32,000 bases of DNA, taken from NCBI GenBank assembly GCA_964591795.1, contig CAZQEL010000002.1, positions 6,312-38,311 of the forward strand, written 5' to 3'. Every line of letters begins with the position of its first letter. The stretch's first letter is position 1. Made by a program: the position numbers and the translations under genes. The notes beneath the pieces are model-generated. The model was not told the DNA's origin, searched no databases, and saw only the letters and a program-made list of their open reading frames with translations. Source of the DNA: an uncultured archaeon. Its GTDB lineage: Archaea > Iainarchaeota > Iainarchaeia > Iainarchaeales > CSSED10-239. Positions 1 through 31,922 of this stretch are shown here, one piece after another.

Positions 1-1
1 T

Positions 2-511
2 TTAAAGTTAAACAAATTTAAAAAACCAGAACATTATTCTTTTGCATTCAAGAAACTTGGATTTAAAGAGCCGTTTGAGTTTGTTCGTTTGTTTTCTTAT
101 GCTGGATTTAAATCTCCTTTAAAACTCGCTAATTGTTTAAAGGTTTCAGGTTTTAAAAAATCAAAGGATTTTTCACATATTTCTAAAAGTTTAGATTTAA
201 CAGTTAAACAACAATCTAAATTTTTAAAAAAATTAGGTTTTACAAAAATTGAAGATTATGTGTCAGGTGTTTATTTAAGAAAACCAAGTATTGGTGTTTA
301 TGCTGAGTTATTTAAAATATCAGGTTTTAAGTATCCTTCAGTAATTGCAAGTGGATTTATTAAGGCAGGATACATAACACCTAAAGAGATTGTAAATGGC
401 TTAAGATTTTATGGTTTTTCTGAAAAACTTACATTTTTAACTGCTCTTCAAAATGTTGGTTTTAATGGTCACGAAGCAGTAAACACTTTAAAAGAACTAA
501 ATCTTTATTAG
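2..511 (+). CDS. hypothetical repeat protein, 5' end off-window (about eight tandem ~16-aa G-F/Y units)
   Basis: The frame stays open from base 2 to the TAA at 509-511, so the TTG at 89 in the ORF track is probably internal. The protein is a run of units such as KKLGFKEPFEFVRLF, SYAGFKSPLKLANCL, KVSGFKKSKDFSHI, KKLGFTKIEDYVSGV, KISGFKYPSVIASGF, IKAGYITPKEIVNGL, RFYGFSEKLTFLTAL and QNVGFNGHEAVNTL. No family recognised. Confidence 0.5.
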   Translation, partial: LKLNKFKKPEHYSFAFKKLGFKEPFEFVRLFSYAGFKSPLKLANCLKVSGFKKSKDFSHISKSLDLTVKQQSKFLKKLGFTKIEDYVSGVYLRKPSIGVYAELFKISGFKYPSVIASGFIKAGYITPKEIVNGLRFYGFSEKLTFLTALQNVGFNGHEAVNTLKELNLY

Positions 512-591
512 TTTTTTTTAATTGCTTGATCAACAAGCAATTATTAGTTATTATTATAAACTAGTTCTCTTATAATTATTTTAGATTAAGT

Positions 592-1380
592 ATGCCTTTA
601 TTTAAATTATCTAAAATAAATTCTTTTTTTAAAAAGAAAAGTACATCTAAAAACAACAACTCTAATATAAGTAAACTTAATATAAAAAATAAACATCTAA
701 TTACTTTTGCGCCTCATTTTGAAAAAAAAATAACAAGTGAACAAATTTCTAATTTTTGGAATAGATATTTATCAAATGGTTTTAAGGAACTACTAAAAAC
801 TAGATTAGCTAATAAAAAAACAAATCATATCTCACAGTATAATTCAAAAATGAAGATTTTACCTTTCTCATCATCTGTTGGTGTGACTGTTAGAATTTTG
901 GATTTTATTTCTCATGCCAAATATATTAAAAGATATGAAATTTTAAGTAAATATTTTAAAAATAAAAAATTAAGATATTCTAAAGTGGTTTTAGTTGACC
1001 TTTTAAGTTCCAGAAAATTAAATGATCTTCATTATGGTGTAGTAGAAAGAGTGTTTCCTTCTCTAACCATAAATGATTTAGAAATAATTTTAAAAGAGCA
1101 TACTGTTTTCAGGCCAGAAGATGTTTACTATAATAGATATAGTTCTTCTTTTATAAATAAACTTAAAGTTAATGAAATAAACCCTGCGCTTCTTTTAAAA
1201 CATCTTAAACGTGCTACTAAAGAATTATATAAAAATTCTAAAATTATTGAAAATTTTGATACTGCTAACAATAATATAGTTATTTTAGACTATAATAAAT
1301 CAAAAGGAAAATTTAAGTTTGGTTTAATTGATTTTTATGGTTCAGGTACATCCAGTTTTAGAAAAGATATTTTTAAATAG
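592..1380 (+). CDS. hypothetical Lys-rich protein, possibly a divergent kinase-like fold
   Basis: 262-aa ORF with an ATG start and TAG stop. The C-terminal region FDTANNNIVILDYNKSKGKFKFGLIDFYGSG resembles a D-x4-N catalytic loop followed by a DF[GY] motif. It resembles the 14690-15499 product in layout. The functional call is weak. Confidence 0.45.
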   Translation: MPLFKLSKINSFFKKKSTSKNNNSNISKLNIKNKHLITFAPHFEKKITSEQISNFWNRYLSNGFKELLKTRLANKKTNHISQYNSKMKILPFSSSVGVTVRILDFISHAKYIKRYEILSKYFKNKKLRYSKVVLVDLLSSRKLNDLHYGVVERVFPSLTINDLEIILKEHTVFRPEDVYYNRYSSSFINKLKVNEINPALLLKHLKRATKELYKNSKIIENFDTANNNIVILDYNKSKGKFKFGLIDFYGSGTSSFRKDIFK

Positions 1381-1875
1381 TTTTATAAGTAGTACTAAGT
1401 AACTTTCTTGATTTGCTTCTTTTATTGTACATTTAGCTAGTCTTTTCTTATTTTATTATGCTTTTAATCATTATTCCCTTACCTATGGGTAATAAGTGCT
1501 AATAAGGTTATTTTTAAAGACTTTTTATATATATTATATGTATAACTAATATAGGTATAAGAAGATGAATTTAACTAATTTTTACTCAGTGATTTTTAGA
1601 CTATTTATTACTTTTAGTGAACAGTTATTTTCCGAATATATCTCTTTAAAAACCTATTGTTTATTTTTCGAAAAAGAAAGCTTTTTAAACAAAATTGTTC
1701 CTTAATTATCTTACAGAAGACATCAGTATCCGTAATTACAAATATACAGATATTTGATCGTAAAGAATCTGCTGTATTTTTTTAACATTATTTTTTTGTT
1801 AGAAATAAAATCAATATCAAAAAAACAGATTCAGTCTTTGTTTTAAAAAAAACAAAATAAAAAGGTGAATAAAAA

Positions 1876-4341
1876 ATGAAAAATATAAATACGAAAAAAG
1901 TCATTGCTGGCGTTGCTGCATTAGGACTTTCTGCATTACTTGCAGGTTCCGTTGTTGCTGCTAACGTAGGTGCTGATAATTTCAGTATGAATATCACAAA
2001 AGACACAATGTTTAATAATGGTGTTCCTGCTGTTAGTGTTGTAGTTGGATCTATGGCACAACCAGTTGATGTAGTATGGGCTGGTAACATAGCTGCTGCA
2101 ATCGGAAAGAAAGCTTACACAACTGCAGGTACAGTTGGCGGAGCTGTTTTACAAGATGTAACAGTTGAAGTTGGTTCTTCAAGTTCTTCAACAATATCAG
2201 GTGATGGAAAATTAACTGATGATTGGACAATTGGTAGTACAAGTGTAACAGAAACAATAGATGATTCTGATTATTCATTACTTGGTGACTACGATGTATC
2301 TGTTGATGATGATATATTTGGTGATGATAGTATAAATGTAAAAGAATCTATTATATTAAAAGCAAATGTTTCTTTTGATGATGATAAAGATGTTGCTGAT
2401 TTAACTGCTGCAATACCTAAATCTGCTATAGAATACGCATTAGAATTTAATCCAGGTATTAATGATGATACAAATGATTCAGGAAGTCCAGATTTTAAAT
2501 TCAATTTAATGGGTAAACAATACACATTAGAAGATTATTCTAGTGGAACAATGACTTTAGTTCAAAATAAAGCTACAGTTCCTTACATGGTTGGAGATAC
2601 TTTTGAAATTGAAGGTTATACAATTGAAGTAAAAACAATCCTTGAAAAATCATCTGAGGGTGCAACTTACGAATCTGAAATGTCTATTAGTAAAGATGGT
2701 TCTGTATTAGCTACAAATATTTATGCTGATGGAGATAAAATTTTTGATGATTACTTAGAAATAGATACAGAAATAGATACAGTATATAATACTAGAGTAA
2801 CTGTAATTTCTGGAACTAGTGCTAGAGTTAAATTAAAAAGCGGACAAGTAATTAAAGATTTCCCTAATATCGGAGACGAATTATGGAAAGTTGCATTTAC
2901 TGGTTCTGATCCTGTTACAGTTATCACAATAACTAACGATGATTCAGATGTACAATGGAAAAATGAAGATGCATTAAGAGTTGGAGATTCAGTTGAATTA
3001 CCATTCGGATTTGCTAAAGTTGAATTTTTAGGTTTAACTAAAGAAGATTCAAAGACATTAACTGTTGAAGATGGTATGTTATCATGGACAGATTCATCAG
3101 ATGATGATCACTCAATATTTTTCTATGAACAAGATACTTCTGATTATGAAACAGGAGATAATTACACTACATCTGCTGAAATAGATGGTAAAAATCTTTA
3201 CTTCGATTTTAATACTACTGATGATCTGACTCAAGCAGATGTTGCAGAATCTGGTTATTTTACAGTACAATTAGAAGATGAAGATGGTAAATATTTATCA
3301 ACTACAGATTCATGGTCATGGGATTCTTTAGCAGCTCCAACAGCTACTGAAAAATTCTATTTTGATGGTGATGCGGTAGAGGATACTGCAACAGATTATG
3401 TTGGTTTCACAGATATAATTGTTCCATTATATAATGATGAATCAGTAAAAATTGCATATGGTGTCTATACTAAAGAAGTATCTGATGTAATTGAACAAAT
3501 TGCAATTTCATTAAAATCAACTGCAACAGGTAGTATAAACGCAAGTCCTGTTCAAAACTGGACTGTTGGAAAAACATATTACCAAATAGGTACAGATGAT
3601 TTAAATGTTTCAACTTACGTTGGTGTTTCTGATATATCTTCAATTACAGTTGCTGATGAAGATATGGATTCTATGTTTGAATTAGTTGTTACTGATAGTG
3701 TGGATACTTTTACAGCACATATTGATGCATACACTGGTGATTTAGTTAATACTGATGATTCAGATTATGATGGTGGATTAAATCAAGTTGTTTCTGCATC
3801 TGCTAATTTAGATCAAGAAAATTCAGACGATTTAACATGGGCTTATACTGCTTTCGGTACAAAGTACATGGTAGATGGTGGAATTTTTGAAGCTGAAATG
3901 CCAGAATCAAGACTTTACGGACAAATTTTCATTGGTGGAGGAATTTCTGAAGAAATGACTCTTAACGGTGGAGAATTAGTTTTAACTACTCCCGGTACAG
4001 TTGTTTCAACAGAAGACGGTATGGTTTCAGCTAAGTTAGTTTCTTCTAATGTTATAGGATCAGACGCAACTGTTGCTATGACTCCTGCTGCATGGAATGT
4101 AAACACACAAAGATTAGTATATCTTGACAATGAAGCTATGGTTCCAACTGGTGCTAAAATAATTGTTGGTGGACATTTAGTTAACTCTTTAGCTAACGGT
4201 GTTACAAACGATTACTTAACACAAGCTGGTCAATATGTTGTAGGTTCAGATGCTACTGGTAACGTTCTTGTTGCTGGTTACACTGCTGAAGATACAGCTG
4301 ACGCTGCAAAAGAATTAATAACTGTTATAGAAAACATGTAA
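1876..4341 (+). CDS. S-layer protein (Methanococcales-type N- and C-terminal blocks)
   Basis: The signal peptide is MKNINTKKVIAGVAALGLSALLAGSVVAANVGA. It is followed by VSVVVGSMAQPVDVVWAGNIAAAIGKK. The C-terminus carries KIIVGGHLVNSLA...VLVAGYTAEDTADAAKELI. These resemble the conserved S_layer_N and S_layer_C blocks of methanococcal S-layer proteins. The protein is very acidic, has no Cys and has many N-x-S/T sequons. A GGTGA Shine-Dalgarno lies 7-8 nt upstream of the ATG, and a T-rich tract follows the gene. Confidence 0.8.
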   Translation: MKNINTKKVIAGVAALGLSALLAGSVVAANVGADNFSMNITKDTMFNNGVPAVSVVVGSMAQPVDVVWAGNIAAAIGKKAYTTAGTVGGAVLQDVTVEVGSSSSSTISGDGKLTDDWTIGSTSVTETIDDSDYSLLGDYDVSVDDDIFGDDSINVKESIILKANVSFDDDKDVADLTAAIPKSAIEYALEFNPGINDDTNDSGSPDFKFNLMGKQYTLEDYSSGTMTLVQNKATVPYMVGDTFEIEGYTIEVKTILEKSSEGATYESEMSISKDGSVLATNIYADGDKIFDDYLEIDTEIDTVYNTRVTVISGTSARVKLKSGQVIKDFPNIGDELWKVAFTGSDPVTVITITNDDSDVQWKNEDALRVGDSVELPFGFAKVEFLGLTKEDSKTLTVEDGMLSWTDSSDDDHSIFFYEQDTSDYETGDNYTTSAEIDGKNLYFDFNTTDDLTQADVAESGYFTVQLEDEDGKYLSTTDSWSWDSLAAPTATEKFYFDGDAVEDTATDYVGFTDIIVPLYNDESVKIAYGVYTKEVSDVIEQIAISLKSTATGSINASPVQNWTVGKTYYQIGTDDLNVSTYVGVSDISSITVADEDMDSMFELVVTDSVDTFTAHIDAYTGDLVNTDDSDYDGGLNQVVSASANLDQENSDDLTWAYTAFGTKYMVDGGIFEAEMPESRLYGQIFIGGGISEEMTLNGGELVLTTPGTVVSTEDGMVSAKLVSSNVIGSDATVAMTPAAWNVNTQRLVYLDNEAMVPTGAKIIVGGHLVNSLANGVTNDYLTQAGQYVVGSDATGNVLVAGYTAEDTADAAKELITVIENM

Positions 4342-4343
4342 AT

Positions 4344-4391
4344 GTTTTCTTAAACTTTTATTTTTCTTTTTTTTCTTTTTTTTTATTTTTT
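4344..4391 (+). terminator. oligo-T rich tract downstream of the S-layer gene
   Basis: The sequence is ttttcttaaacttttatttttcttttttttctttttttttatttttt, immediately after the TAA. Archaeal termination uses oligo-T runs. Confidence 0.4.
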
Positions 4392-4515
4392 AACAAACTT
4401 TAAAATTCTTTATCTTTATTATTTTAAAAAAATCTATTTATAAATCTTATCTTCTTATATATTTTTTAATAAGTATTTTTACTTTTTAAAATTAAATATT
4501 AAAGAAAAATTAATC

Positions 4516-4872
4516 ATGTTTACAAAAAAACAAAAAGGTCAAGTTTCAGTTGAAATGTTAATTATTTTAGGTGTAATTATACTTGTTGCTGTTGTTTTTG
4601 TATCATATTATTTATCAGTAATAAATAAAAATATAGATAAAACAAGTAATGTTCCTACTGGAGTTCAAGTTAATAATTTAATAGAAAATAGTTTTAATAA
4701 TCCTAACCTTACTTCTGCACCTACAAGTTTAGCTACTTGTGGAAATGGAACTATTGATCCTATGGAAGTTTGTGATTATCTTATTTTCCCATTTGGATTA
4801 ACTTGCGATAATATAACTGGTGCAGGTACAACTTTAGTGTGTACTGATTGTCTTGAAATTACTTGTACTTAA
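4516..4872 (+). CDS. archaeal type IV pilin (class III signal peptide, Epd-like) with a C-terminal Cys-rich CGNG...C-D unit
   Basis: The N-terminus MFTKKQKG|QVSVEMLIILGVIILVAVVF matches the prepilin pattern (K-G, then Gln at +1, then a hydrophobic helix). The C-terminus is CGNGTIDPMEVCDY...LTCDNITGAGTTLVCTDCLEITCT. Its N-terminal 45 aa are paralogous to the 30756-31922 protein. Confidence 0.8.
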   Translation: MFTKKQKGQVSVEMLIILGVIILVAVVFVSYYLSVINKNIDKTSNVPTGVQVNNLIENSFNNPNLTSAPTSLATCGNGTIDPMEVCDYLIFPFGLTCDNITGAGTTLVCTDCLEITCT

Positions 4873-5302
4873 ATTTTAATTATTGCTTTTTATTAAAAAA
4901 AGAAAAATCGTTTTTACTAATATTAGTTTTAATCAAATAACTAGTTTATTAAAATTAGTAATTGTTAAAAAAAAGTAATTGTGAAGAATAAAATTATTTT
5001 TCTTCTTCAACTCTATTTTCTTTTATTCTCTTCATTGTTCTTGGAGAGAATGATTCTTTATACCATTTTTTCCAAATGATTAAAATATCATCATAATTAG
5101 TTTTACCGTGTTCTTGAAGATATTCTTCTTTTATAAGTAATAATTTATTATGTGCATAAACTGTGTTTTTAGCTTCCAAAAGTTCAATACAATCATTTTC
5201 GTTTGCAAAATCTACTTGGTATTTTTTTTCTTTTGCACGCATACTGATGTTATTCCACATCTCTTCAATTGTCATACCAGTAAGTTTTGATATTTTTGAA
5301 AA
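4752..5302. repeat. left copy of the ~550-bp direct repeat (pilin 3' end, spacer and ATPase 3' end)
   Basis: It aligns by eye with 7077-7626. Bases 4877-5245 look identical to 7201-7569. The differences cluster in the pilin-tail block and at 5246 and 5254. Confidence 0.9.
4994..5302 (-). pseudogene. orphan 3' fragment of the secretion ATPase gene (copy of the tail of 7318-9633)
   Basis: It translates to ...FSKISKLTGMTIEEMWNNISMRAKEKKYQVDF...ENRVEEEK. This is the last ~100 aa of the full ATPase with one substitution (MWNN versus MWDN). Homology stops abruptly at 5302. Confidence 0.85.
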
Positions 5303-5387
5303 TATAGGTGTAAATTCCTTTTTTATTAACTTATATTTATATTTTTCCTTTTCTTGACTAGTAATACCTCCAAAAAACTCCTTTTTC

Positions 5388-5405
5388 TGACTAGTATACT
5401 AGTCA
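5388..5405. promoter_or_regulatory. perfect 18-bp palindrome TGACTAGTATACTAGTCA upstream of the AAA ATPase gene, plus a half-site
   Basis: The sequence is self-complementary and lies 43 nt upstream of the ATG at 5448. An extra half-site TGACTAGTA sits at 5354-5362. It is a likely operator. Confidence 0.45.
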
Positions 5406-5447
5406 ACTTTTAGAAAGTATTATATACTATTCGGTTATAGTATTATT

Positions 5448-6785
5448 ATGCTTGACTGGAAAAACATAATTTTACAAAATCCTTGGTGGCAAGGTAAAGA
5501 AGATTATGATATTTCTAAACTTAAAAATAATAATTATTCTATTTCTAGAAAAAGTATACTTATAGCTCCTAATAAAATATATTTAATTAAAGGACCTAGA
5601 AGAGTTGGTAAAACTATTTTTTTAAAAAAAATAGCACAAGAGAATCCAAATATCTCTACTTATATAAATTTTGACACTCTTTTAAATGTTAGAATTTCTG
5701 AATTAATTAAAACTATCGAACATGATATTAAAATAAACAATAAAAAAATAATTTTACTAGATGAAATACAATCTTTAAAAGAAGGATGTTTATTTTTAAA
5801 ATCTTTAAAAGATCTAAACTTATTAAAAGATGTTTGTGTAATTGTTACTGGTTCTGATCCAAGAGCAATTGATCGTTGTAAACAATATTTAATAGGTAGA
5901 TCTGAAAAACTAAATATAATGGCTCCTTTAACTTTTAGACAATATATTTTAACTATTTTAAAAAAAGAAAATTTAATTTTGTTTAATATTATAAATAACA
6001 TTACAATTGATGCTAGTGAACCAAATTTAGATATATTTAAAAAATATAAATTAATAGAAAATTATTTTGAAGAAATTAATGATTATTTTTTTAATTATCT
6101 TTTAACAGGTGGGTTTCCTGAAGCTATTAATTCTTATTTTGAAAAAGGGTATGTAGATGAAAAGTATTATGAAGATATTGTTGAAAAAATATTTGAAAAA
6201 ATGGATAAATCTAAATCAATATCTATTTTAAAAGTTATTATTGATTCTTTATCAGGATCTATTAAATATTCTACCATTGAACAAAAAACAGGATATTCTA
6301 GAGATACAATTAAAAGTTATTTAAAAACTTTATCTGAGCTTCTAGTTGTTTTTGAAGTTAAAGAAAATAGTTCTTCAATTCTTAAAAAGTTTTATATAAA
6401 AGATCCTTTTATTATCCATTCAATTGCTAATTTATATAAAAATACAAATTATTTTGATCAAAGTAAACAACTTTTATTTAATGAACAAAAATTAGGTGTT
6501 TTTGCAGAAAATATTGTTGCTAGTCATTTACATAATCTTTACAATCTCGATCTTTCTTATTATAACGTAGATAAAAAAGAAATTGATTTTATTGTTTTAA
6601 AAAAAGCAATAGAAGTAAAATATAGGAACACATTAGTTAAACCAAATTATGTTGATTTTATAGATGAATACTTGATATTATCAAAATCAGTTTTGCCACC
6701 CGGAGATGTTATGATAGAAAATAGATTAGTTATACCTGTTTGTATTTTTTTAAGTCTTTTGGAAGTTCCAAAATATTTTTTGTGA
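5448..6785 (+). CDS. AAA+ ATPase (AAA_14) with a DUF4143 / PD-(D/E)xK-like C-terminal domain
   Basis: The N-terminus carries NPWWQGKEDYD. Walker A is GPRRVGKT and Walker B is ILLDEIQ. The C-terminus KEIDFIVLKKAIEVKY gives a D...E-x-K nuclease-like motif. This is the typical archaeal/bacterial ATP-binding protein of the DUF4143 family. Confidence 0.8.
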   Translation: MLDWKNIILQNPWWQGKEDYDISKLKNNNYSISRKSILIAPNKIYLIKGPRRVGKTIFLKKIAQENPNISTYINFDTLLNVRISELIKTIEHDIKINNKKIILLDEIQSLKEGCLFLKSLKDLNLLKDVCVIVTGSDPRAIDRCKQYLIGRSEKLNIMAPLTFRQYILTILKKENLILFNIINNITIDASEPNLDIFKKYKLIENYFEEINDYFFNYLLTGGFPEAINSYFEKGYVDEKYYEDIVEKIFEKMDKSKSISILKVIIDSLSGSIKYSTIEQKTGYSRDTIKSYLKTLSELLVVFEVKENSSSILKKFYIKDPFIIHSIANLYKNTNYFDQSKQLLFNEQKLGVFAENIVASHLHNLYNLDLSYYNVDKKEIDFIVLKKAIEVKYRNTLVKPNYVDFIDEYLILSKSVLPPGDVMIENRLVIPVCIFLSLLEVPKYFL

Positions 6786-7076
6786 TTTTAAATGGGTTTA
6801 AATTCAATTGTATTTAAAATATTTTTTTTATTTTTTTTATTAATAAACTGATTAGTTGAATTATTATAATACTTAATTTTAGGAGTAATTAGTATTTGTT
6901 CATAATAATGAATAAAAAATAGTGTATTTTGTTCACCCCTCTTGATCAATTTTAAAACTTTTTGTTTATATATATCTTTTATAGATTAAGATATATTGGT
7001 AAAACTGTTCTGTTATTACAATTATTTTTAATTTAATAGATTTTGATTTAATTTCAACTAATTATATAAATAAAGT

Positions 7077-7626
7077 TATTGATCCTATGGAAGTTTGTGA
7101 TGATACTAATTTTCCAATAGGTATTACTTGTACTTATGTTGTTAGTTCTGGTACAACTTTAGTGTGTACTGATTGTCTAGAAATTACTTGTAGTTAATTA
7201 TAATTATTGCTTTTTATTAAAAAAAGAAAAATCGTTTTTACTAATATTAGTTTTAATCAAATAACTAGTTTATTAAAATTAGTAATTGTTAAAAAAAAGT
7301 AATTGTGAAGAATAAAATTATTTTTCTTCTTCAACTCTATTTTCTTTTATTCTCTTCATTGTTCTTGGAGAGAATGATTCTTTATACCATTTTTTCCAAA
7401 TGATTAAAATATCATCATAATTAGTTTTACCGTGTTCTTGAAGATATTCTTCTTTTATAAGTAATAATTTATTATGTGCATAAACTGTGTTTTTAGCTTC
7501 CAAAAGTTCAATACAATCATTTTCGTTTGCAAAATCTACTTGGTATTTTTTTTCTTTTGCACGCATACTTATGTTATCCCACATCTCTTCAATTGTCATA
7601 CCAGTAAGTTTTGATATTTTTGAAAA
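7077..7626. repeat. right copy of the ~550-bp direct repeat
   Basis: See 4752-5302. This copy is continuous with the full-length ATPase gene. Confidence 0.9.
7081..7197 (+). pseudogene. promoter-less 3' fragment of a variant pilin gene
   Basis: It reads DPMEVCDDTNFPIGITCTYVVSSGTTLVCTDCLEITCS*. The full pilin reads DPMEVCDYLIFPFGLTCDNITGAGTTLVCTDCLEITCT*. The ends are conserved and the central 16 aa differ. The frame is open back to 7003, but there is no Met and no class III signal peptide. Confidence 0.8.
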
Positions 7627-9633
7627 GATTTCAGAATCTTTAAGTGCATCTTCATTTAAAACAAGTGTATCTTTAGCAGCATCGTATTCCATTAAATTAA
7701 GAATACCTCCTTCTGATTCTGGATCTGTATTCCAATGTTTACGTACTTCTGTTATTTGAACAATTCTTTTATGACTCTTAAGTGAGCCTTTAAATCTAAT
7801 TGGCTTAGCTACAACAATAATATCTGTTGCTTTAAATGAAGTGGTAGGTACTCCTAAATCATTAACTACACGATCCCACACAGCATAAGCTGAGTCAGCG
7901 TGTATGGTTCCCATAACTACATTCCCTGCAGCACCAATTCTCATAGCTTCATATAGTACTTTTGCTTCAACTGACCTTACTTCTCCTACAATTAATGCAG
8001 AATCACCTAATCTAAGAGCTGTTCTAAGTGCATCTTCAGGTTTCATTTCAGTTGTTGCTGTTTCTCCAGTTCCACCAATGGCTGATCTTGTTTTAAGTCT
8101 TTGAGCATTAAAACCAATATCTTTCATATACATTATTGGTAGTTCTAAAGTGTCTTCTTGAACAATTATTCTTGCATTTTGTAAAATTTCAAGCATTAAA
8201 GCAGTCATTAATGATGTTTTTCCTGCACCACGTGATCCTGCTACTAAAAGAGTTGAATTGTTATCAATAAAAAAACTTAATAAACCAGCTGCTAATGGGT
8301 TTAATGAGTTTACATTTATTAGTTGTGGAAGTGTCCACGGTGTATCCTTATGTAATCTAAATGCAAATGCAATACCGTCTGTTGCTAAAGGATGACCAAT
8401 AATTGCAATTCTTGTGTTTAAATCAGGCATATCAAAATCAAGAACAGGATGTGCATCATCAAATGGTCTTCCTGACATTGCTCTTATTTTTCCAACAAAA
8501 CTTTCAGCGTCTTTTTCTGGATAGTGTATGTTTGTTTGACACTGTCCATATTTTGAATGAACTACGTATATTGGTTTTGCTCCTAGTGGAGAATCTAAAT
8601 ATACATCAGTTAATTGTCTATCTGATAATAATAATTCTAAGATACCATAACCAATAGTGTATCTTGTAACTATTTCTGATAGTGAATAAACATCATCAGG
8701 TGATAATTCAATACTATATTTTTTAGCAATATCAATTATTGTTGATTGATATATTCTTTGGAAATATTTTCTAGTACTCTCTCCTGTTGTAAGAGTTACT
8801 TTTCCTGGTTTGTAATTAGCAACAGTATCTTTTGTTTTTGTTAATACAAAATAATGATCTGGAGACAATGTATATTCAGGTGGATTAATTAAATAAATAT
8901 ATTCTACTTTTTCTGGATGTCTAAATATTTGTACTGATGTGTTAAGTACTTGGTATTCATCAATTAACTCTAAAGTATCCATGTCTTTAAAAGTTAATTT
9001 TGATCCAATAAATGCTGGTTTTATTTCTACATCAAATATTGTTCTATAGATGTCTGTAACTTCAGAAAAATCAGTTATTTTTAATAAAATTGGTTTTATT
9101 TTTTTTAAAAATGTAGTTTTTTCATACATTTCTTTAAGTCTTAAAAGATGTTTTGTATTTTGTGTAAAACAGATTTCACAAGGTTGACCGTTTCTCTCTT
9201 GTGCTCGGTTTTTTGTATTTTCTATTTCTTTTAAAAGGCTAATGTATGAAGCTATTGGATCATAGGACAATAATTCTTTTGCAAATTTAATAATGTTATT
9301 ATGTCTTTCTGGATAACATTCATCACAGTCAATTTCTTTAACACCTAAGTGTTGAGATACCCATACTGCTCTATTTTCAAACTCTAAAAGTAAATTCACC
9401 ATTTCTTTTAAATATTTTGTTTGTTCTTCATTATAATTTCTTTCATAAACTTCAGCTAATATAATTTCATCAGCATCAACAGTTTCTAGTATTTTCATTG
9501 CATGATATCTACATCTAGGATCTTCAGCAATGGATGTATTATAAGGGCAATTTCTACAATCAAAAACTAGTTTTTTTTTAGAGCCTTCTGTTGTAACAAC
9601 ATAATCTCCAACTGTGAATTTTCCTATTTTCAT
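7318..9633 (-). CDS. type II/IV secretion (FlaI/VirB11/PilB superfamily) ATPase, extended 771-aa form
   Basis: Walker A is VAGSRGAGKTSL and the Walker B region is RIIVQEDTLEL. It also carries ALIVGEVRSVEA...GNVVMGTIHADSA. The N-terminal ~170 aa hold Cys pairs (CRNCPYN...CRYH, CDECYPERH, CEICF). A ~100-aa C-terminal extension is also present. Confidence 0.85.
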   Translation of the reverse strand: MKIGKFTVGDYVVTTEGSKKKLVFDCRNCPYNTSIAEDPRCRYHAMKILETVDADEIILAEVYERNYNEEQTKYLKEMVNLLLEFENRAVWVSQHLGVKEIDCDECYPERHNNIIKFAKELLSYDPIASYISLLKEIENTKNRAQERNGQPCEICFTQNTKHLLRLKEMYEKTTFLKKIKPILLKITDFSEVTDIYRTIFDVEIKPAFIGSKLTFKDMDTLELIDEYQVLNTSVQIFRHPEKVEYIYLINPPEYTLSPDHYFVLTKTKDTVANYKPGKVTLTTGESTRKYFQRIYQSTIIDIAKKYSIELSPDDVYSLSEIVTRYTIGYGILELLLSDRQLTDVYLDSPLGAKPIYVVHSKYGQCQTNIHYPEKDAESFVGKIRAMSGRPFDDAHPVLDFDMPDLNTRIAIIGHPLATDGIAFAFRLHKDTPWTLPQLINVNSLNPLAAGLLSFFIDNNSTLLVAGSRGAGKTSLMTALMLEILQNARIIVQEDTLELPIMYMKDIGFNAQRLKTRSAIGGTGETATTEMKPEDALRTALRLGDSALIVGEVRSVEAKVLYEAMRIGAAGNVVMGTIHADSAYAVWDRVVNDLGVPTTSFKATDIIVVAKPIRFKGSLKSHKRIVQITEVRKHWNTDPESEGGILNLMEYDAAKDTLVLNEDALKDSEIFSKISKLTGMTIEEMWDNISMRAKEKKYQVDFANENDCIELLEAKNTVYAHNKLLLIKEEYLQEHGKTNYDDILIIWKKWYKESFSPRTMKRIKENRVEEEK

Positions 9634-9783: not shown

Positions 9784-9833
9784 TATAACTTACCCTGGAT
9801 ATTAAGAAATTGGTTTGTCCAGGGTAAGTTATA
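9784..9833. repeat. hairpin element, copy 1 (16-bp perfect arms TATAACTTACCCTGGA / TCCAGGGTAAGTTATA, 18-nt loop)
   Basis: The arms are 9784-9799 and 9818-9833. It is a GC-rich core in AT-rich DNA, just upstream of the Fic ATG at 9860. Confidence 0.8.
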
Positions 9834-9859
9834 TAAATCCTTTCACTCTATATATTTAT

Positions 9860-10843
9860 ATGGCATATATATATGTTAAGCAAATTGGTTCTAAAAAATA
9901 TTATTATTTAAGAGTTGATAAAAGGGTTAATGGTAAGAAAATCGTAAAAGATATTGCCTATCTTGGTTCTGATTTATCTAAAGTAGATGTAAAAAAACTA
10001 ATTAGTTCTTCTAAATATGGTAAGGAGATAACTAAAAGTTATAAACAAATAAATCATCTAATTACTTCTAACTATTATTATAGGAAAGCAGAGCTTTTAA
10101 AATATAAAAAAAACACTTATTTAACTAAAGAACAATTAATACGATTAAATGCTATTAGTTTTCATTTTTCTTCAAATTTTAAAAAATTGCATCAATTAAC
10201 TGCTGCTGATTTTTTAAATAATTTTGTAATTTCTTATACTTATAATACTACTTCAATTGAAGGAAATACAATTGCTCTGGCTGATGTTAAAAAAATATTA
10301 ACTGATGATTCAATTTATTTAAAAAATAAAACTTTAAGAGAGATTTATGATTTAAGAAATACAAAAGATACTTTTAATTATATTTTTAAAAACACTCTAA
10401 AATTAAGCCTTAAGGTTATTATTGATATTCATAAAAAATTAATGAAAGATGTTGATGATAGAGTGGGTTTTAGAAATTTTGATGTTAGAGTTTTTAAATC
10501 TCATTTTAAGTCTTCTCTTTATTTTAGGATTGATAAGGAAATTAACGATTTACTTTCTTGGTTTAATATATCTAAAGAAAATATTTTTGTAAGGGCAGTT
10601 ATTTTTCATCATAAATTTGAAAAGATACATCCTTTTGGAGATGGTAATGGACGGACAGGAAGAATGTTATTAAATTTAATTTTATTAAATAATAATTTAC
10701 CTCCTTTAATTATTACTAAGAAAAACAAAAAATTTTATTTTGATTCACTTTCAATTGCAGATAAAAAAGAAGATTATTCATTTTTAATTTCTTTTTTATT
10801 AGATGAGTATGAAAAAGGTTATTGGCAACATTTTATTTCTTAA
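9860..10843 (+). CDS. Fic/DOC family protein (class II, internal inhibitory helix)
   Basis: The Fic motif HPFGDGNGRTGR fits HxFx[DE]GNGRxxR. An upstream TTSIEGN fits the [ST]xxxE[GN] auto-inhibition motif. The start is moved to ATG 9860 (MAYIYVKQIGSKKYYYLR) because the TTG at 9815 lies inside the hairpin. Confidence 0.85.
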   Translation: MAYIYVKQIGSKKYYYLRVDKRVNGKKIVKDIAYLGSDLSKVDVKKLISSSKYGKEITKSYKQINHLITSNYYYRKAELLKYKKNTYLTKEQLIRLNAISFHFSSNFKKLHQLTAADFLNNFVISYTYNTTSIEGNTIALADVKKILTDDSIYLKNKTLREIYDLRNTKDTFNYIFKNTLKLSLKVIIDIHKKLMKDVDDRVGFRNFDVRVFKSHFKSSLYFRIDKEINDLLSWFNISKENIFVRAVIFHHKFEKIHPFGDGNGRTGRMLLNLILLNNNLPPLIITKKNKKFYFDSLSIADKKEDYSFLISFLLDEYEKGYWQHFIS

Positions 10844-10966: not shown

Positions 10967-10995
10967 TTGAATATGTGTTGTTTTATAATTATATT

Positions 10996-11247
10996 ATGGA
11001 TGAATTTATAGTTAGATTAAAAGGTAAGCCAAAAGAATACCTTGATATTCTACTTAAGGAAGGATATTTTAATACCAAAAGTGAAATTGTAAGACATGGT
11101 ATTTTAGCTCTTGCTAATAAATACAATGTAGAACAAGATTATGTTGTAGATAAAGATGAACTAATAAAAGTAGGTAAGGCTGTAAAAAGAGAATTAAGAG
11201 ATATTCAAAAAAAAAAAGTAAATTATATACTGAAGATGAATTTTTAG
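10996..11247 (+). CDS. ribbon-helix-helix (CopG/ParD-like) antitoxin
   Basis: MDEFIVRLKGKPKEYLDILLKEGYFNTKSEIVRHGILALANKY has the beta-strand, helix, helix pattern of RHH proteins. It lies directly upstream of a RelE-like ORF. The C-terminal frame is uncertain because of an A11 tract at 11207-11217. Confidence 0.6.
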   Translation: MDEFIVRLKGKPKEYLDILLKEGYFNTKSEIVRHGILALANKYNVEQDYVVDKDELIKVGKAVKRELRDIQKKKVNYILKMNF

Positions 11248-11288
11248 AATTATTTCCACATTTAAAAAAAGTAAAATAGTGGTATTTA

Positions 11289-11510
11289 TTGTATGATTAT
11301 AAGTTAACTGAATCATTTAAAAAAGATTTTGAAAAATTAGATGTTTCTTTTCAAATTATTATTTTTAAAAAAATAAAATATATTCTTTCGAATGATATTT
11401 CAAGAAAGCATTTAAAATATGGTTATCCTTATTTTGTATTAAAACTTAACATTTCTTCTAGACTTGTTTGTATGATTAAAAATGGTGTTCTTCTTTATAA
11501 TTTATTTTAA
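11289..11510 (+). CDS. relE: RelE/ParE-superfamily toxin-like protein
   Basis: This is a 73-aa protein. YKLTESFKKDFEKLDVSFQIIIFKKIKYIL...RLVCMIKNGVLLYNLF follows the RelE layout (Y-x-L...F-x-K-D-x-x-K-L...R-L-V/I-Y...). It pairs with an upstream RHH gene. It has a TTG start and a short C-terminus. Confidence 0.5.
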   Translation: MYDYKLTESFKKDFEKLDVSFQIIIFKKIKYILSNDISRKHLKYGYPYFVLKLNISSRLVCMIKNGVLLYNLF

Positions 11511-11543: not shown

Positions 11544-12674
11544 TTATTTTATTTTTTTAATAACTTCTTCGAAAAATAATTTAATTAAATAACCTAAACA
11601 AGGAGATGAGATGTAATTTGTGACTTCTGATATTTTTATCCATTTAAAATTAATGTGTGCTGGGATTTTTAGTTCTTCAGAATCTGTGGTAACATAGTAA
11701 TATTCAGTATATATTTTTTTAAATGTGTTTTCTGATTTTTCGTACCAGTGGTGGCAACCGCCCATTTTTTTTTCAATTATTTTTAAATTAGTAAGACCAG
11801 TTTCTAATTCAATTTCTTTTTTAATAACTTTAAGTGATTTTTTTATTTGTTTTTCTGATGGTTTTCCTTTTGGAAAACTCCAAAAACCACAACTGGTTTT
11901 ATTGTCTTCAAGTAAGAGTATTTTTTTAATTTTAGGATTGTATATTATTTTTCCTTTTGCATAATTAAATTTTATTTTTAATAATTTATTTTTTATATAT
12001 ATGTCTTCAAGATTTGTTTTATTTAGAGTTAATTCAAATTTTAAAATTTGATTTAAAATTATATCTTTATTAATTTTATTGTAATTTTTAATTTTTGAAA
12101 GCATTTTTTGTGTATCTTTAATATCTACTTTTAATTGATTTAAAAGTCTTGCATATTTATCTAAATTGTAATACATTTTATATTTGTTATTTTGAAAATA
12201 ATTTTCTAAAAACTCAATTCTTATTTTTGAAAAAACACTTGTAGTTTCAAATGAGAATTCAAAATAGGTTTTTGATTTAAGTAGGTTTAAAAGATCATCT
12301 TCAATTCTGTACCCATATATAAAAAAGCTATTAAGTATGAAATCATAAAGATAAGGGTAAAATAGATCTGTGGATATATTTTTTAAATTATTTTTATCTT
12401 GTGCATTTATTTTAAATTCAATTTCTATTTGGTATTTCTTACTTACATCTTCTTTAATTTTAGCTAAAGCATTAATATCTGTTTTTTTAAGTTCTTTATT
12501 TTTTGTAAAAACCATAACATTAAGGTCACTTTCTTTAGGAGTTACTTCTCCTCTTGCAAAAGAACCGTGAATATATACTGATTTTATAAATGGAAATTTT
12601 TTCTTATTAAAAATTGTTTTTAAATAGTTTGTTAATGTATAATATTCTTCTAGATTTTTATTTATAATATCCAT
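11544..12674 (-). CDS. nucleotidyltransferase (MNT/KNTase-like), helical region and Nudix-like domain fusion protein
   Basis: The N-terminus YIHGSFARGEVTPKESDLNVMVF is an NTase G-S...D-x-[DN] motif in which the second Asp is Asn. The C-terminus GFWSFPKGKPSEKQIKKSLKVIKKEIELETGL resembles a Nudix box (W-x-F-P-K-G...[RK]-E-U-x-x-E-x-G-U) with non-canonical positions. Confidence 0.6.
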   Translation of the reverse strand: MDIINKNLEEYYTLTNYLKTIFNKKKFPFIKSVYIHGSFARGEVTPKESDLNVMVFTKNKELKKTDINALAKIKEDVSKKYQIEIEFKINAQDKNNLKNISTDLFYPYLYDFILNSFFIYGYRIEDDLLNLLKSKTYFEFSFETTSVFSKIRIEFLENYFQNNKYKMYYNLDKYARLLNQLKVDIKDTQKMLSKIKNYNKINKDIILNQILKFELTLNKTNLEDIYIKNKLLKIKFNYAKGKIIYNPKIKKILLLEDNKTSCGFWSFPKGKPSEKQIKKSLKVIKKEIELETGLTNLKIIEKKMGGCHHWYEKSENTFKKIYTEYYYVTTDSEELKIPAHINFKWIKISEVTNYISSPCLGYLIKLFFEEVIKKIK

Positions 12675-26120: not shown

Positions 26121-26196
26121 TCCTCACAAAAAAACTATTTTTTAATTTTTATAAGTTTTATTTTTTAAAGATTGAAAGTCTTTGTAGTTTTTATTA
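26121..26196 (+). promoter_or_regulatory. conserved upstream boxes A and B of csp copy 1
   Basis: Box A, TCCTCACAAAAAAACTATTTTTTAAT (26121-26146), matches 24 of 26 with 26702-26727. Box B, TCTTTGTAGTTTTTATTA (26179-26196), is identical to 26755-26772. Box B contains a TATA-like TTTTTATTA 36 nt upstream of the ATG. Confidence 0.5.
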
Positions 26197-26232
26197 CACT
26201 AAATAAAAAATATATAAAAGAGTGAAAAAAAT

Positions 26233-26424
26233 ATGAATGGTACTGTTAAATTTTACAACATCAACAAAAACTTTGGTTTCATAACTGGAGAAGACGGAAA
26301 GGACTACTTTGTTCACGGTTCAGGAATTGCTGACAATGAAACACTTAGAGATGCTATGCCAGTTTCTTTTGATGTAACTGAAGATGAAAAAGGTCAAAAA
26401 GCAATTAACGTAAGAAAAGCTTAA
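26233..26424 (+). CDS. csp: cold-shock domain protein (CspA family), copy 1
   Basis: The 63-aa protein MNGTVKFYNINKNFGFITGEDGKDYFVHGSGI carries an RNP1-like motif (K-N-F-G-F-I) and an RNP2-like motif (Y-F-V-H). Confidence 0.9.
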   Translation: MNGTVKFYNINKNFGFITGEDGKDYFVHGSGIADNETLRDAMPVSFDVTEDEKGQKAINVRKA

Positions 26425-26456
26425 TTGTTATAATTGATTAATTTGCGTTTATACTG

Positions 26457-26701: not shown

Positions 26702-26772
26702 TCCTTACAGAAAAACTATTTTTTAATATATTTATTTATTTCGCGAATTAACTATCTTTGTAGTTTTTATTA
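26702..26772 (+). promoter_or_regulatory. conserved upstream boxes A and B of csp copy 2
   Basis: See 26121-26196. Box A is 26702-26727 and box B is 26755-26772, 46 nt upstream of the ATG. Confidence 0.5.
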
Positions 26773-26818
26773 TATTATATAAAAAAACAAAAAAAATATA
26801 AAAAAGAGAGAAAAATAT

Positions 26819-27010
26819 ATGAATGGTACTGTGAAGTTTTATAACTTTAAAAAAAATTTTGGTTTTATAACTGGAGAAGATGATAAGGATTATTTTGTAC
26901 ATAGTTCAGGTATCGCAGATGATCAAATGATTAAAGATGGTATGCCAGTTTCTTTTGATGTAACAGAAGATGATAAAGGCCAAAAAGCAATTAATGTTAC
27001 AAAAATATAA
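26819..27010 (+). CDS. csp: cold-shock domain protein (CspA family), copy 2
   Basis: MNGTVKFYNFKKNFGFITGEDDKDYFVHSSGI is a 63-aa paralog of 26233-26424. Confidence 0.9.
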   Translation: MNGTVKFYNFKKNFGFITGEDDKDYFVHSSGIADDQMIKDGMPVSFDVTEDDKGQKAINVTKI

Positions 27011-27496
27011 ATTTTTAATTAACATTTAAAAAAAATTATTTGTTTTTTGCAAAAAAACACCTTATACCCAAATTAGTCTTTTTTTAATTAAAAGGGCTAA
27101 TTTCTTTCTATTTTTATAATTTTATAGTTATTTATTGCTTTTTAAAATCAAGTTTATGTACTAAATACTAGTTAACTTAACTAGATTAACCATTAATTGT
27201 TAGTTTTGTGTTTCTTTTTTCAAAATATCTTTGTTTTCTAAACTAAATCTAATTATAATCATTTTTCTTTATAATTACTTTATATTCTGCTTTTTTAAAT
27301 AGTTATCTAACATCAATAAAGAGGTTTAAAACGTGATAAGTTAAAAAAACAACAAAACACTGCCCTTTAAAAAAAATAAAGAGTAAATTTTGTGAATTTT
27401 TTTTACGGCCACGACCTCTCCCTTCCAATTAATTAATAACCACTTTAAACTTAAGATTATTTTAATTAAATAAACAATTAAAAAAGTGAATAATAA

Positions 27497-30755: not shown

Positions 30756-31922
30756 TTGGAAAAAAGATATAAAGCTCAAGTTTCTGTAGAAATGTTAGTA
30801 ATGGTTGGAATTGTTGTTTTAGGCGGTATTCTGTTTGCAACTTTTTATTTATCTTCTGTTAATAAAAATATAGATAAAACAACTAACCTTGATGTGGATT
30901 TCACTAATTTAATTGGTGATGAAAACATGGGATCATTTCCAAGTTTAGATTCAAATAATGGTAACACACCTGGTGATGGTTTTTGTGGTGATGGTATTGT
31001 TGATTCTTTTTTATTAGAACAATGTGAACTACCTGGTTCAACTGCTTTTTGTAATAGTTTATCTCCATCTTTTACTGGTGGAAATGCTACATGTACTGGA
31101 TCATGTATTTGGGATTTATCTTCTTGTATTGGTTCTTCAACTTGTGGTGATGGTATTTTTAATGCTTTCACAGAAGTTTGTGATTATGATAATTCTGCTG
31201 GTAGTTATCTTTATAATTCAAGTTATGATTGTTCAACAAATCCTGATTATCTTTCAGGTGTTGTAGGTCCTTATATTAATGGTGGAGCAATAACTTGTAG
31301 TTCTTGTAATGTTGATTACACTGGTTGTGATTATAATCCTGGTAATTTACAAGATTATATTTTAATGTTAGAACCAACAATTGCATCTGCAAATATTGAT
31401 ATATCTCGTTCTACAAATTTAAGTATTGATTTTAATGGATCTACTTGGGTTGATGTAAATGTTTCTGTATTAGTAGATGGTCCTATGGGTCCAGTTAATT
31501 CAGATAAATGTGAATATGATAATGTTATAATTCCTGCAAATCCACAAGGTAGTTTTGTACATAGATTTTTAAGTACAACCTCAACTGAAGAATTTATTAA
31601 AGATGTAAGTTGTTCTGAAAATGGAGTTTATACTTTTAGTTTTAAAGGAATTGATAATAATGGTAATACTGATCAAAAAGACTTAATTTTTACTGTTCCT
31701 CAAGAAGCACCTCCTTTATTTGCATTATGTAAGAATCAAACAAACACAGAAGGAACTATTAGTAATTGGTGTATTAATTATTTATCTGATACACAAACAA
31801 ATGCAGAAGGAACAGTTACTTTCTTTATTAATCAACCTGATAATTTAGAATATAGTAGTTTAGATCCTATTTGTCAAATTACTAATGATGGAAGTATTTG
31901 TTTTTCATTAGGTTTTACATAA
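30756..31922 (+). CDS. large type IV pilin-like adhesin (class III signal peptide, Cys-rich CGDG repeats and a C-terminal beta-rich domain)
   Basis: MEKRYKA|QVSVEMLVMVGIVVLGGILFATFYLSSVNKNIDKTTN is paralogous to the 4516 pilin N-terminus. It is followed by CGDGIVDSFLLEQCELPG and CGDGIFNAFTEVCDYDN units and many Cys. It has a TTG start with GAGG 8 nt upstream. An internal duplicate QTNTEGTIS / QTNAEGTVT is present. Confidence 0.75.
   Translation: MEKRYKAQVSVEMLVMVGIVVLGGILFATFYLSSVNKNIDKTTNLDVDFTNLIGDENMGSFPSLDSNNGNTPGDGFCGDGIVDSFLLEQCELPGSTAFCNSLSPSFTGGNATCTGSCIWDLSSCIGSSTCGDGIFNAFTEVCDYDNSAGSYLYNSSYDCSTNPDYLSGVVGPYINGGAITCSSCNVDYTGCDYNPGNLQDYILMLEPTIASANIDISRSTNLSIDFNGSTWVDVNVSVLVDGPMGPVNSDKCEYDNVIIPANPQGSFVHRFLSTTSTEEFIKDVSCSENGVYTFSFKGIDNNGNTDQKDLIFTVPQEAPPLFALCKNQTNTEGTISNWCINYLSDTQTNAEGTVTFFINQPDNLEYSSLDPICQITNDGSICFSLGFT

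Follow-up and report, generated by a model that had tools for sequence, protein, structure and literature searches.

Organization of the pilin–ATPase locus

The stretch of DNA analysed here, hereafter the window, comprises 32,000 nucleotides and harbors a pilin gene and, convergent with it, an intact gene for a pilus assembly ATPase of the T2SSE (FlaI/PilB-like) type, whose homologues are annotated as Ca. Iainarchaeum / Diapherotrites. Between both genes lies an insert, named Y, bracketed by two copies of a 554-bp direct repeat, A on the left and B on the right (Table 1). The copies display 95.3% identity over 555 alignment columns, and the stretch 4877–5245 is identical in both. In copy A an orphan ATPase tail adjoins the intact pilin gene, while in copy B an orphan pilin tail adjoins the intact ATPase gene. 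The features of a repeat-flanked insertion are hence found together: the repeats have the same orientation and bracket the insert, both genes are whole, and the orphan fragments are reciprocal. An earlier, sequence-only reading of this DNA had pointed to the conservation of the spacer downstream of a pilin fragment. The spacer is indeed conserved, but the similarity continues beyond it and takes in a further 312 nt at the 3' end of the ATPase gene. Within the truncated ATPase tail, a 93-aa ORF (4994–5275) was called by annotators as P0182. ORF and Pfam analysis of the 32-kb window yielded no integrase, transposase, reverse transcriptase or recombinase; the window has no tRNA gene, and no Rfam RNA was detected in the spacer or the insert at E ≤ 1.

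Table 1. Positions of the genes, repeats and sequence blocks of the locus, numbered from the first nucleotide of the window.
Feature	Position	Strand	Basis or remark
Expressed pilin gene, 118 aa	4516..4872	+	Pfam PF04021, E 1.6e-6
Direct repeat copy A, 554 nt	4752..5305	.	Last 39 codons and stop of the pilin, 121-nt spacer, truncated ATPase 3' end
Variable block, allele A (YLIFPFGLTCDNITGA)	4777..4824	+	21/48 nt differ from allele B
Truncated T2SSE ATPase tail, last 103 codons and stop	4994..5305	-	Reciprocal by-product
Insert Y, 1771 nt, between the repeat copies	5306..7076	.	Junctions backed by contigs L002, L003 and L027
AAA_14 + DUF4143 protein (AAA445), 445 aa	5448..6785	+	Pfam, 6.3e-21 and 7.2e-16
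Direct repeat copy B, 553 nt	7077..7629	.	Pilin tail, 120-nt spacer, true ATPase 3' end
Orphan pilin tail, 5'-truncated, 39 codons and stop	7077..7197	+	Sequence comparison with the pilin
Variable block, allele B (DTNFPIGITCTYVVSS)	7102..7149	+	In the tail; compared with allele A
Intact T2SSE (FlaI/PilB-like) pilus assembly ATPase, 771 aa	7318..9633	-	PF00437, 6.7e-17; convergent with the pilin

The expressed pilin gene encodes a bona fide archaeal class III signal (type IV) pilin. Its product matches the Pfam Class_IIIsignal family with 28.3 bits, above the cut-off of 23.7, and carries a class III signal peptide with the processing site KG/QVSVE. The AlphaFold model, of moderate quality overall (pLDDT 66.6), consists of an N-terminal helix spanning residues 6–43 and a C-terminal knot with pLDDT values of 75–82. 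The protein contains a single Cys-rich repeat, CGNGxIDPxEVCD..FPxGxTC..LxCxxCxEIxC. A full HMMER scan retrieved an orthologous pilin family (P0122–P0129) with 40–57% identity, and showed that the Cys-rich unit of about 45 aa also occurs in tandem in many large proteins, those of Myxococcota included. In the family alignment the E.CD and FP motifs, the Cys residues and the Ile of the C-terminal CxEIxC are invariant, and the loops between these residues differ in both sequence and length. In a scan of a genome-contig collection the matches were a single sister from the archaea, L007, and six Cys-repeat proteins of bacteria, and a pattern scan of metagenome proteins retrieved only distant relatives of the pilin N terminus.

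Concerning insert Y, its sole gene, AAA445, matches the PADLOC family PDC-S01 (3.5e-26), and on these domain matches it is classed as a candidate defence gene of that family, encoding an AAA_14 ATPase fused to DUF4143. DUF4143 has been assigned to the PD-(D/E)XK domains (PMC3424549), PDC-S01 has been described as a fusion of ATPase and nuclease with a high abundance in archaea, and an enrichment of several PDC defence candidates in DPANN archaea is reported (PMC12988326). The genes neighbouring PDC-S01 are SoFic/PDC-S04-like and PDC-S09-like. A viral or plasmid-like origin was considered and set aside, as IMG/VR gave neither a relative of AAA445 nor a match to the right flank; a scan of metagenome DNA for that flank returned 0 matches.

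The orphan pilin tail and its variable block

The orphan pilin tail translates as (V)IDPMEVCDDTNFPIGITCTYVVSSGTTLVCTDCLEITCS followed by a stop codon, and its counterpart in the expressed gene (4753–4872) reads IDPMEVCDYLIFPFGLTCDNITGAGTTLVCTDCLEITCT, likewise followed by a stop. It lies downstream on the same strand, with an offset of 2325 nt between the two copies. The alignment bears out the earlier description of a truncated pilin copy, 2.3 kb away from the expressed gene, with conserved flanks, a diverged core and the Cys framework kept. The extent of the fragment had to be corrected, however: it had been given as 7003–7197, and homology to the pilin begins only at 7077. The segment 7003–7076 is an open frame whose local alignment with the 5' part of the pilin scores 34.5, compared with 30.5 ± 4.1 for shuffled sequences, which is not significant; over the 290 nt upstream of the tail, the resemblance to the pilin 5' part is no greater than that of shuffled sequence. 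The possibility that the tail derives from a decayed full-length pilin paralogue was thus ruled out, as any similarity to the pilin 5' part upstream of 7077 is within the shuffle range.

As had been stated, the tail bears no class III signal peptide. The accompanying claim that it has no start codon did not hold, since an internal ATG at 7087 (the Met of DPMEVCD) opens a 36-aa ORF, P0145, that was called by three annotation pipelines (JGI, ENA and Logan). A TATA-like sequence, ATTATATAA, is found at 7061–7069, 26 nt 5' of this ATG, and the AAA445 gene has a TATA-like motif at the same distance upstream; in this DNA, with its GC content of 24%, such motifs have a frequency of about 0.26 per 60 nt. 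The tail, presumably non-functional, keeps both an intact reading frame and a TATA-like box before its ATG.

The differences between tail and pilin concentrate in the variable block, where 21 of the 48 nucleotides (44%) and 11 of the 16 residues differ, the F, P, G, T and C residues being retained. To the left, the 25 nt at 4752–4776 are identical in both copies; to the right, a coding flank of 45–48 nt shows 2 differences and is followed by the spacer. A clustering of at least 21 of the 27 substitutions in one 48-nt window was obtained in 0 of 200,000 permutations. A comparison of synonymous and non-synonymous changes, of the kind that the sequence-only reading had proposed, gives a dS of 0.95 and a dN of 0.59 over the 16-codon block (Nei–Gojobori), against a dS of 0.07 for the pilin flanks and 0.04 for the ATPase tail. 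Divergence is as strong at synonymous as at replacement sites. The block is therefore no product of selection or decay after the duplication, and positive selection after duplication is ruled out as the sole cause of the core divergence.

Both blocks hold every residue that is invariant in the family and have equal length, shorter than that of every sister orthologue except P0129, and for this reason they look like two functional alleles from one lineage. The divergence pattern indicates that the block has a separate, much older ancestry than the rest of the repeat, being an imported or old allele exchanged by short-patch recombination, with recombination breakpoints within 4752–4776 and 4825–4853. 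The tail would accordingly preserve an allele that once was, or elsewhere in the population still is, part of an expressed pilin. It should be noted that the persistence of the difference between blocks A and B through the homogenisation of the central part of the repeat needs no selection; a heteroduplex is unlikely to cross the block, which lies 25 nt from the repeat edge and is 44% diverged.

Sister loci, a second strain and independent assemblies

Four Iainarchaeum-like loci (L004 to L007), with ATPases 87–90% identical, served as sister set. In all four an S-layer gene and/or a pilin orthologue is convergent with the ATPase gene, and the genes in between are different in each genome: a DUF3368 gene and a 189-aa gene in L004, AAA445 and two other genes in L005, AAA445, a second AAA_14 gene and others in L006, and four small genes in L007, which stems from a 671-kb Iainarchaeum MAG contig. 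Judged from these gene contents, the pilin–ATPase interval is a hot spot that differs across five related genomes. Neither a second pilin tail, nor an ATPase tail, nor a long direct repeat is present in any of the four loci; the absence of the fragment from sister genomes fits the caveat, attached to the earlier cassette proposal, that it may be only a by-product of an integration event. The AAA445 orthologues of L005 and L006 (80–83% identical at the amino acid level) occupy the same interval without flanking repeats, and L004 and L007 have other genes there instead. AAA445 may therefore be ancestral at the interval rather than newly inserted, and the location shared with L005 and L006 complicates an account in terms of a recent foreign insertion. 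No simple rearrangement of the L005/L006 state gives the gene order of the window.

A second strain, J, is represented by the 2955-bp JGI contig L027 from sample 3300039186. Read in the orientation of the window, its order is insert right end, tail with block B, a gene for a 195-aa protein, ATPase tail, AAA445 and, once more, insert right end. The first insert right end (7029–7076) is identical to that of the window. The tail differs from the window tail at 7113, 7179 and 7193, in each case carrying the base of the expressed pilin, and the two versions of block B are separated by one synonymous difference. The 195-aa gene stands in for most of the spacer, which brings the repeat to about 1.15 kb. 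As the encoded protein is homologous (32%, 1e-14) to a gene of L004 that sits between pilin and ATPase, the longer repeat looks like a copy of a native pilin–195-aa gene–ATPase arrangement. The second insert right end (up to 7070) shows five differences in 37 nt, and the TATA-like box is disrupted in this copy. The insert–repeat–insert connectivity suggests a circle or a tandem unit; the overlap between the contig ends, 42 nt long and with 4 mismatches (90.5% identity), is imperfect and favors two non-identical copies over a simple circle.

The junctions of this contig match those of the window, which points to a single origin of the structure. The same is indicated for the ATPase tail by an N, in place of the D of the full gene, that is common to both strains (P0185 in strain J). 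Both window copies are alike at 5134, 5143 and 5170, and the strain J tail has the state of most or all of the sisters there (4/4 at 5143 and 5170, 2/4 at 5134). The full-length ATPase of strain J, P0187, has three of these substitutions in common with the tail of its own strain, and differs from the window ATPase in no more than five residues, all of them within the repeat. These sites are thus alike within a strain and different between strains (P0185, P0187, P0188) and, together with the copy-A bases at 7570 and 7578 that contig L002 holds within its copy B, they argue for exchange among the repeat copies themselves or with alleles from outside, and the copies seem to undergo concerted evolution. 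Copies and strains differ in patches of about 40–50 nt each, at 4777–4824, 5125–5170 and 7028–7064.

Regarding independent assemblies, the MEGAHIT contig L001 reproduces positions 1–4992 of the window identically, ends in the spacer and extends 4 kb upstream of the window. Contig L002 begins at 5224 and runs through the insert and the pilin tail into the whole ATPase gene. The Logan unitig L003 covers exactly 5273–7230, where a k=31 graph is expected to break at the repeat. In addition, a 24,271-bp JGI contig appears to hold both P0145 and the ATPase variant P0187. The tail is hence joined to the full ATPase gene in three assemblies (the window, L002 and, as we infer, the 24,271-bp contig), and block A is joined to it in none of them. 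A single assembly, the 65-kb contig of the window, connects the pilin with the ATPase tail across the 369-nt identical core, and an insert-less chromosome together with a free circle would yield the same k-mer content as the window structure. No contig of the empty site (pilin–spacer–ATPase) was recovered.

Origin of the tail and relation to known systems

Taken together, these data make it probable that a duplicative insertion left the tail behind as a by-product, one that has no function and preserves an old pilin allele. The by-product caveat of the sequence-only reading is therefore the best explanation, as the 554-bp repeat duplicates the ATPase 3' end and brackets the insert; partial gene copies at repeat-flanked insertions are well known. 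In the parental state, the pilin and T2SSE ATPase genes would have been convergent neighbours. A 1.77-kb segment with the PDC-S01-type gene would then have entered the interval, accompanied by another copy of the 554-bp junction of pilin 3' end, spacer and ATPase 3' end. The most economical route would be one homologous (Campbell-type) crossover of a circle consisting of the insert and one junction copy, an equivalent duplicative insertion being the alternative. With the pilin served by the left repeat copy and the ATPase by the right one, both genes would remain intact, leaving the ATPase tail and the pilin tail as orphan halves. Later recombination between the direct repeats could have led to concerted evolution and to tandem or circular insert–repeat–insert forms. 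The 48-nt core of one copy would be an old allele of a hypervariable, disulfide-framed loop of the pilin, either brought by the incoming DNA or swapped in later by short-patch recombination.

The silent-cassette reading, which compared the fragment with Neisseria pilS, holds for the architecture (truncation, flanks, core and proximity) and finds no support as a donor system, with a single cassette, none in the sisters and no G4. Under that reading the tail, lacking a promoter, would be kept as a stock of an alternative loop, from which RadA-mediated gene conversion would feed the expressed pilin and so alter the surface of the pilus. It agrees with the conserved flanks, diverged core, Cys framework and intact frame of the tail, with the independent recombinational history of the core, with the apparent sequence exchange between the repeat copies and with the retention of the block-B tail in two strains. 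We nonetheless regard it as improbable. A six-frame motif scan found one tail only in the 32-kb window, and the 4 kb upstream of it (L001) contain none. The left homology arm measures just 25 nt, and the paired, reciprocal ATPase tail would be useless to a variation system and identifies the entire repeat as the scar of a rearrangement. The tail is missing from all four sister loci, and no G3 quadruplex motif occurs on either strand of the window. Most crossovers between the direct repeats would remove the insert and leave block A in place. A search of 5.8 billion proteins returned no further allele of this pilin, and exact look-ups of constructed pilin chimeras in protein collections were negative, so that no other or chimeric allele is seen among 5.8–15 billion proteins; the assemblies represent consensus sequence only. 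Silent cassettes for archaeal pilins did not turn up in the literature searched. About as improbable is an incidental version, in which occasional gene conversion puts block B into the expressed pilin and so turns an insertion by-product into a minimal one-cassette variation system; if true, it would make this Iainarchaeum-like DPANN archaeon the owner of the first archaeal analogue of pilE/pilS.

Somewhat better placed, albeit unlikely, is a mis-phased assembly, in which the chromosome would read pilin–spacer–ATPase and the insert with both tails would form a separate small circular DNA of about 2.3–2.9 kb, so that the tail would be extrachromosomal. An identical core of 369–426 nt cannot be phased by k-mers, the MEGAHIT and Logan contigs break there, and both the insert–repeat–insert connectivity of L027 and the copy-A states at 7570 and 7578 in L002 would be accommodated. 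Against this, the tail is connected with the ATPase body in three assemblies, one of them by inference, and block A in none, which is why we rate this explanation low; moreover, the ends of L027 are non-identical and the element has no replication gene. It is very unlikely that the 36-aa ORF is itself a small expressed gene for a Cys-rich micro-peptide. The three pipeline calls and the TATA-like motif, spaced as in AAA445, would speak for it, but the product has no signal peptide, and the cytoplasm is an implausible place for a secreted disulfide-rich fold; moreover, TATA-like motifs are frequent in this DNA, and the box is disrupted in the second insert copy of L027. The chance that a diversity-generating retroelement (DGR) or an invertible shufflon acts on the pilin tail is close to nil. 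A surface protein gene whose variable region lies at its 3' end, with a repeat nearby, would suit such systems, and DGRs are known in DPANN archaea. None of the ORFs of the window, however, is a reverse transcriptase or recombinase, and the mismatches show no adenine specificity in either direction (one copy: A 8, T 6, C 4 and G 3; other copy: T 9, A 7, G 3 and C 2), for which reasons a DGR was rejected for the window; the repeats are direct and not inverted and no recombinase is present, which led to the rejection of a shufflon or invertase.

Should the duplicative-insertion reading be right, the locus represents a rearrangement scar of an ordinary kind, and it places a PDC-S01 gene in a variable hot spot beside DPANN pilus genes, within long host-derived repeats and with no integrase. 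The repeat unit is seemingly capable of recombining, amplifying or excising, and the surface loop of the pilin would exist in two or more deeply diverged alleles, each moving as a patch of about 50 nt. The case also calls for caution, as a truncated copy of a surface-protein gene with conserved flanks is not by itself an antigenic-variation cassette; only if reads showed swapping of the block would this be the first archaeal case of cassette-based pilin variation. The locus is of moderate interest for an integrase-less, homology-flanked PDC-S01 module with a tandem or circular variant, for short-patch mosaicism and for a fossil loop allele.

Compared with Neisseria pilE/pilS, the locus shares a 5'-truncated copy of the pilin 3' part, devoid of the signal or leader region and near the expressed gene, in which short conserved, Cys-containing segments surround a diverged core that homologous recombination could in principle move. 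It differs in having one copy instead of a family of cassettes, in that this copy belongs to a longer repeat in which the adjacent ATPase gene is duplicated too, in the lack of a G4 initiator and of recombinant alleles among those seen, and in that sister genomes show no conservation of the feature. The pilins differ as well, the one described here being an archaeal class III signal pilin with a head made of a myxococcal-type Cys-rich repeat, whereas the Neisseria protein is a bacterial T4a pilin. With respect to the block itself, gene conversion in Sulfolobus is reportedly short-patch and discontinuous, as studied by the Grogan laboratory. The patches of about 40–50 nt in otherwise identical DNA resemble that process, although here they are deduced from a few metagenomic contigs.

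The variable cargo between pilin and ATPase in five genomes is what is seen at defence-gene hot spots or islands, where, however, a long flanking duplication of host genes is unusual. Elements that integrate by a Campbell-type single crossover, or at att sites in tRNA or protein genes with duplication of the target's 3' end, such as the archaeal SSV and pTN3 types, resemble the locus in the direct repeats that flank the inserted DNA, and in the element-supplied 3' ends that keep target genes intact and leave orphan 3' fragments at the other junction. For such elements excised, circular and tandem forms are expected, and one connectivity of this kind is found here, in L027. Unlike them, the locus has no integrase or other mobility gene, its cargo is a single candidate defence gene, and its repeat is 554 bp long (about 1.15 kb in L027) and extends across two convergent genes. 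Both the length of the repeat and its span over two convergent genes point to general homologous recombination.

Possible promoter signals of the pilin tail and AAA445

The sequence-only reading had described the 5'-truncated pilin copy (the tail) as promoter-less. The truncation stands; however, a TATA-like element, ATTATATAA, is located 26 nt upstream of the tail's internal ATG, with the same box-to-ATG spacing as at AAA445 (the AAA_14/DUF4143 gene of the insert between the repeat copies), and the tail's 36-aa ORF, P0145, is called by three pipelines. Hence, absence of a promoter is not assertable from sequence in DNA of 24% GC. Upstream of AAA445 there are two elements that may form an operator: GACTAGTATACTAGTC, which is a perfect palindrome of 16 nt, and TTGACTAGTAATAC, a half-site related to it. 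Both lie within the promoter region conserved with the sister locus L006, homology to which starts at 5322.

Features and variable sites (window coordinates unless stated)
Feature	Position	Remark
TATA-like ATTATATAA	7061-7069	upstream of tail ORF 7087-7197
Palindrome and half-site	5355-5369 and 5390-5405	5' of AAA445
PDC-S01 (AAA_14/DUF4143)	5448-6785	candidate defence gene
Fic protein	among 9815-10843, 10975-11510, 11544-12674	SoFic/PDC-S04 match, 2e-36
RHH + 73-aa gene pair	among the same three	
NTase-NUDIX fusion	among the same three	PDC-S09/S07 matches, weak
Sites differing from L027/L002	5125-5170, 7028-7064, 7317, 7570, 7578	
Second class-III-signal protein	30756-31922	388 aa
195-aa basic protein gene	L027 2095-2682	minus strand, inside strain J repeat

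Strain differences at the repeat

Where the window differs from L027, the strain J contig, and from the independently assembled contig L002, the differences form short tracts (about 40-50 nt each) or occur at positions diagnostic for the repeat, and only a single-base difference falls within 5171-7027. The five residues that distinguish the ATPase proteins P0187 (strain J) and P0188 all lie inside the repeat. This pattern suggests short-patch conversion or inter-strain exchange concentrated on the repeat. The 195-aa protein of strain J has no match in Pfam or PADLOC. Its homologue in L004 (32%) is encoded by a 189-aa gene occupying the same interval (6233-6802), and a second variant, P0194, is found on a 1,159-bp JGI contig.

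Related pilin, ATPase and defence-type genes

The gene of the second class-III-signal protein, which has CGDG-type Cys repeats, shares its N-terminal DNA with the pilin (71% over 126 nt, against 4524-4649), and an orthologue (41%) occurs in L007 (418-1572). Elsewhere in the window, a 63-aa cold-shock-like gene is tandemly duplicated with its upstream region (26121-26429 / 26702-27015, 78% identical).

Some related T2SSE ATPases (P0093 and P0118) reach 1260-1290 aa, and their precomputed Pfam matches include the intein/homing-endonuclease families PF14528 and PF14890; therefore, the pilus ATPase gene may host inteins in relatives. In the window this gene is flanked on both sides by candidate defence or toxin-type genes, and the PDC-S01, Fic, RHH-pair and NTase-NUDIX genes together resemble a defence island of small size in this DPANN archaeon.
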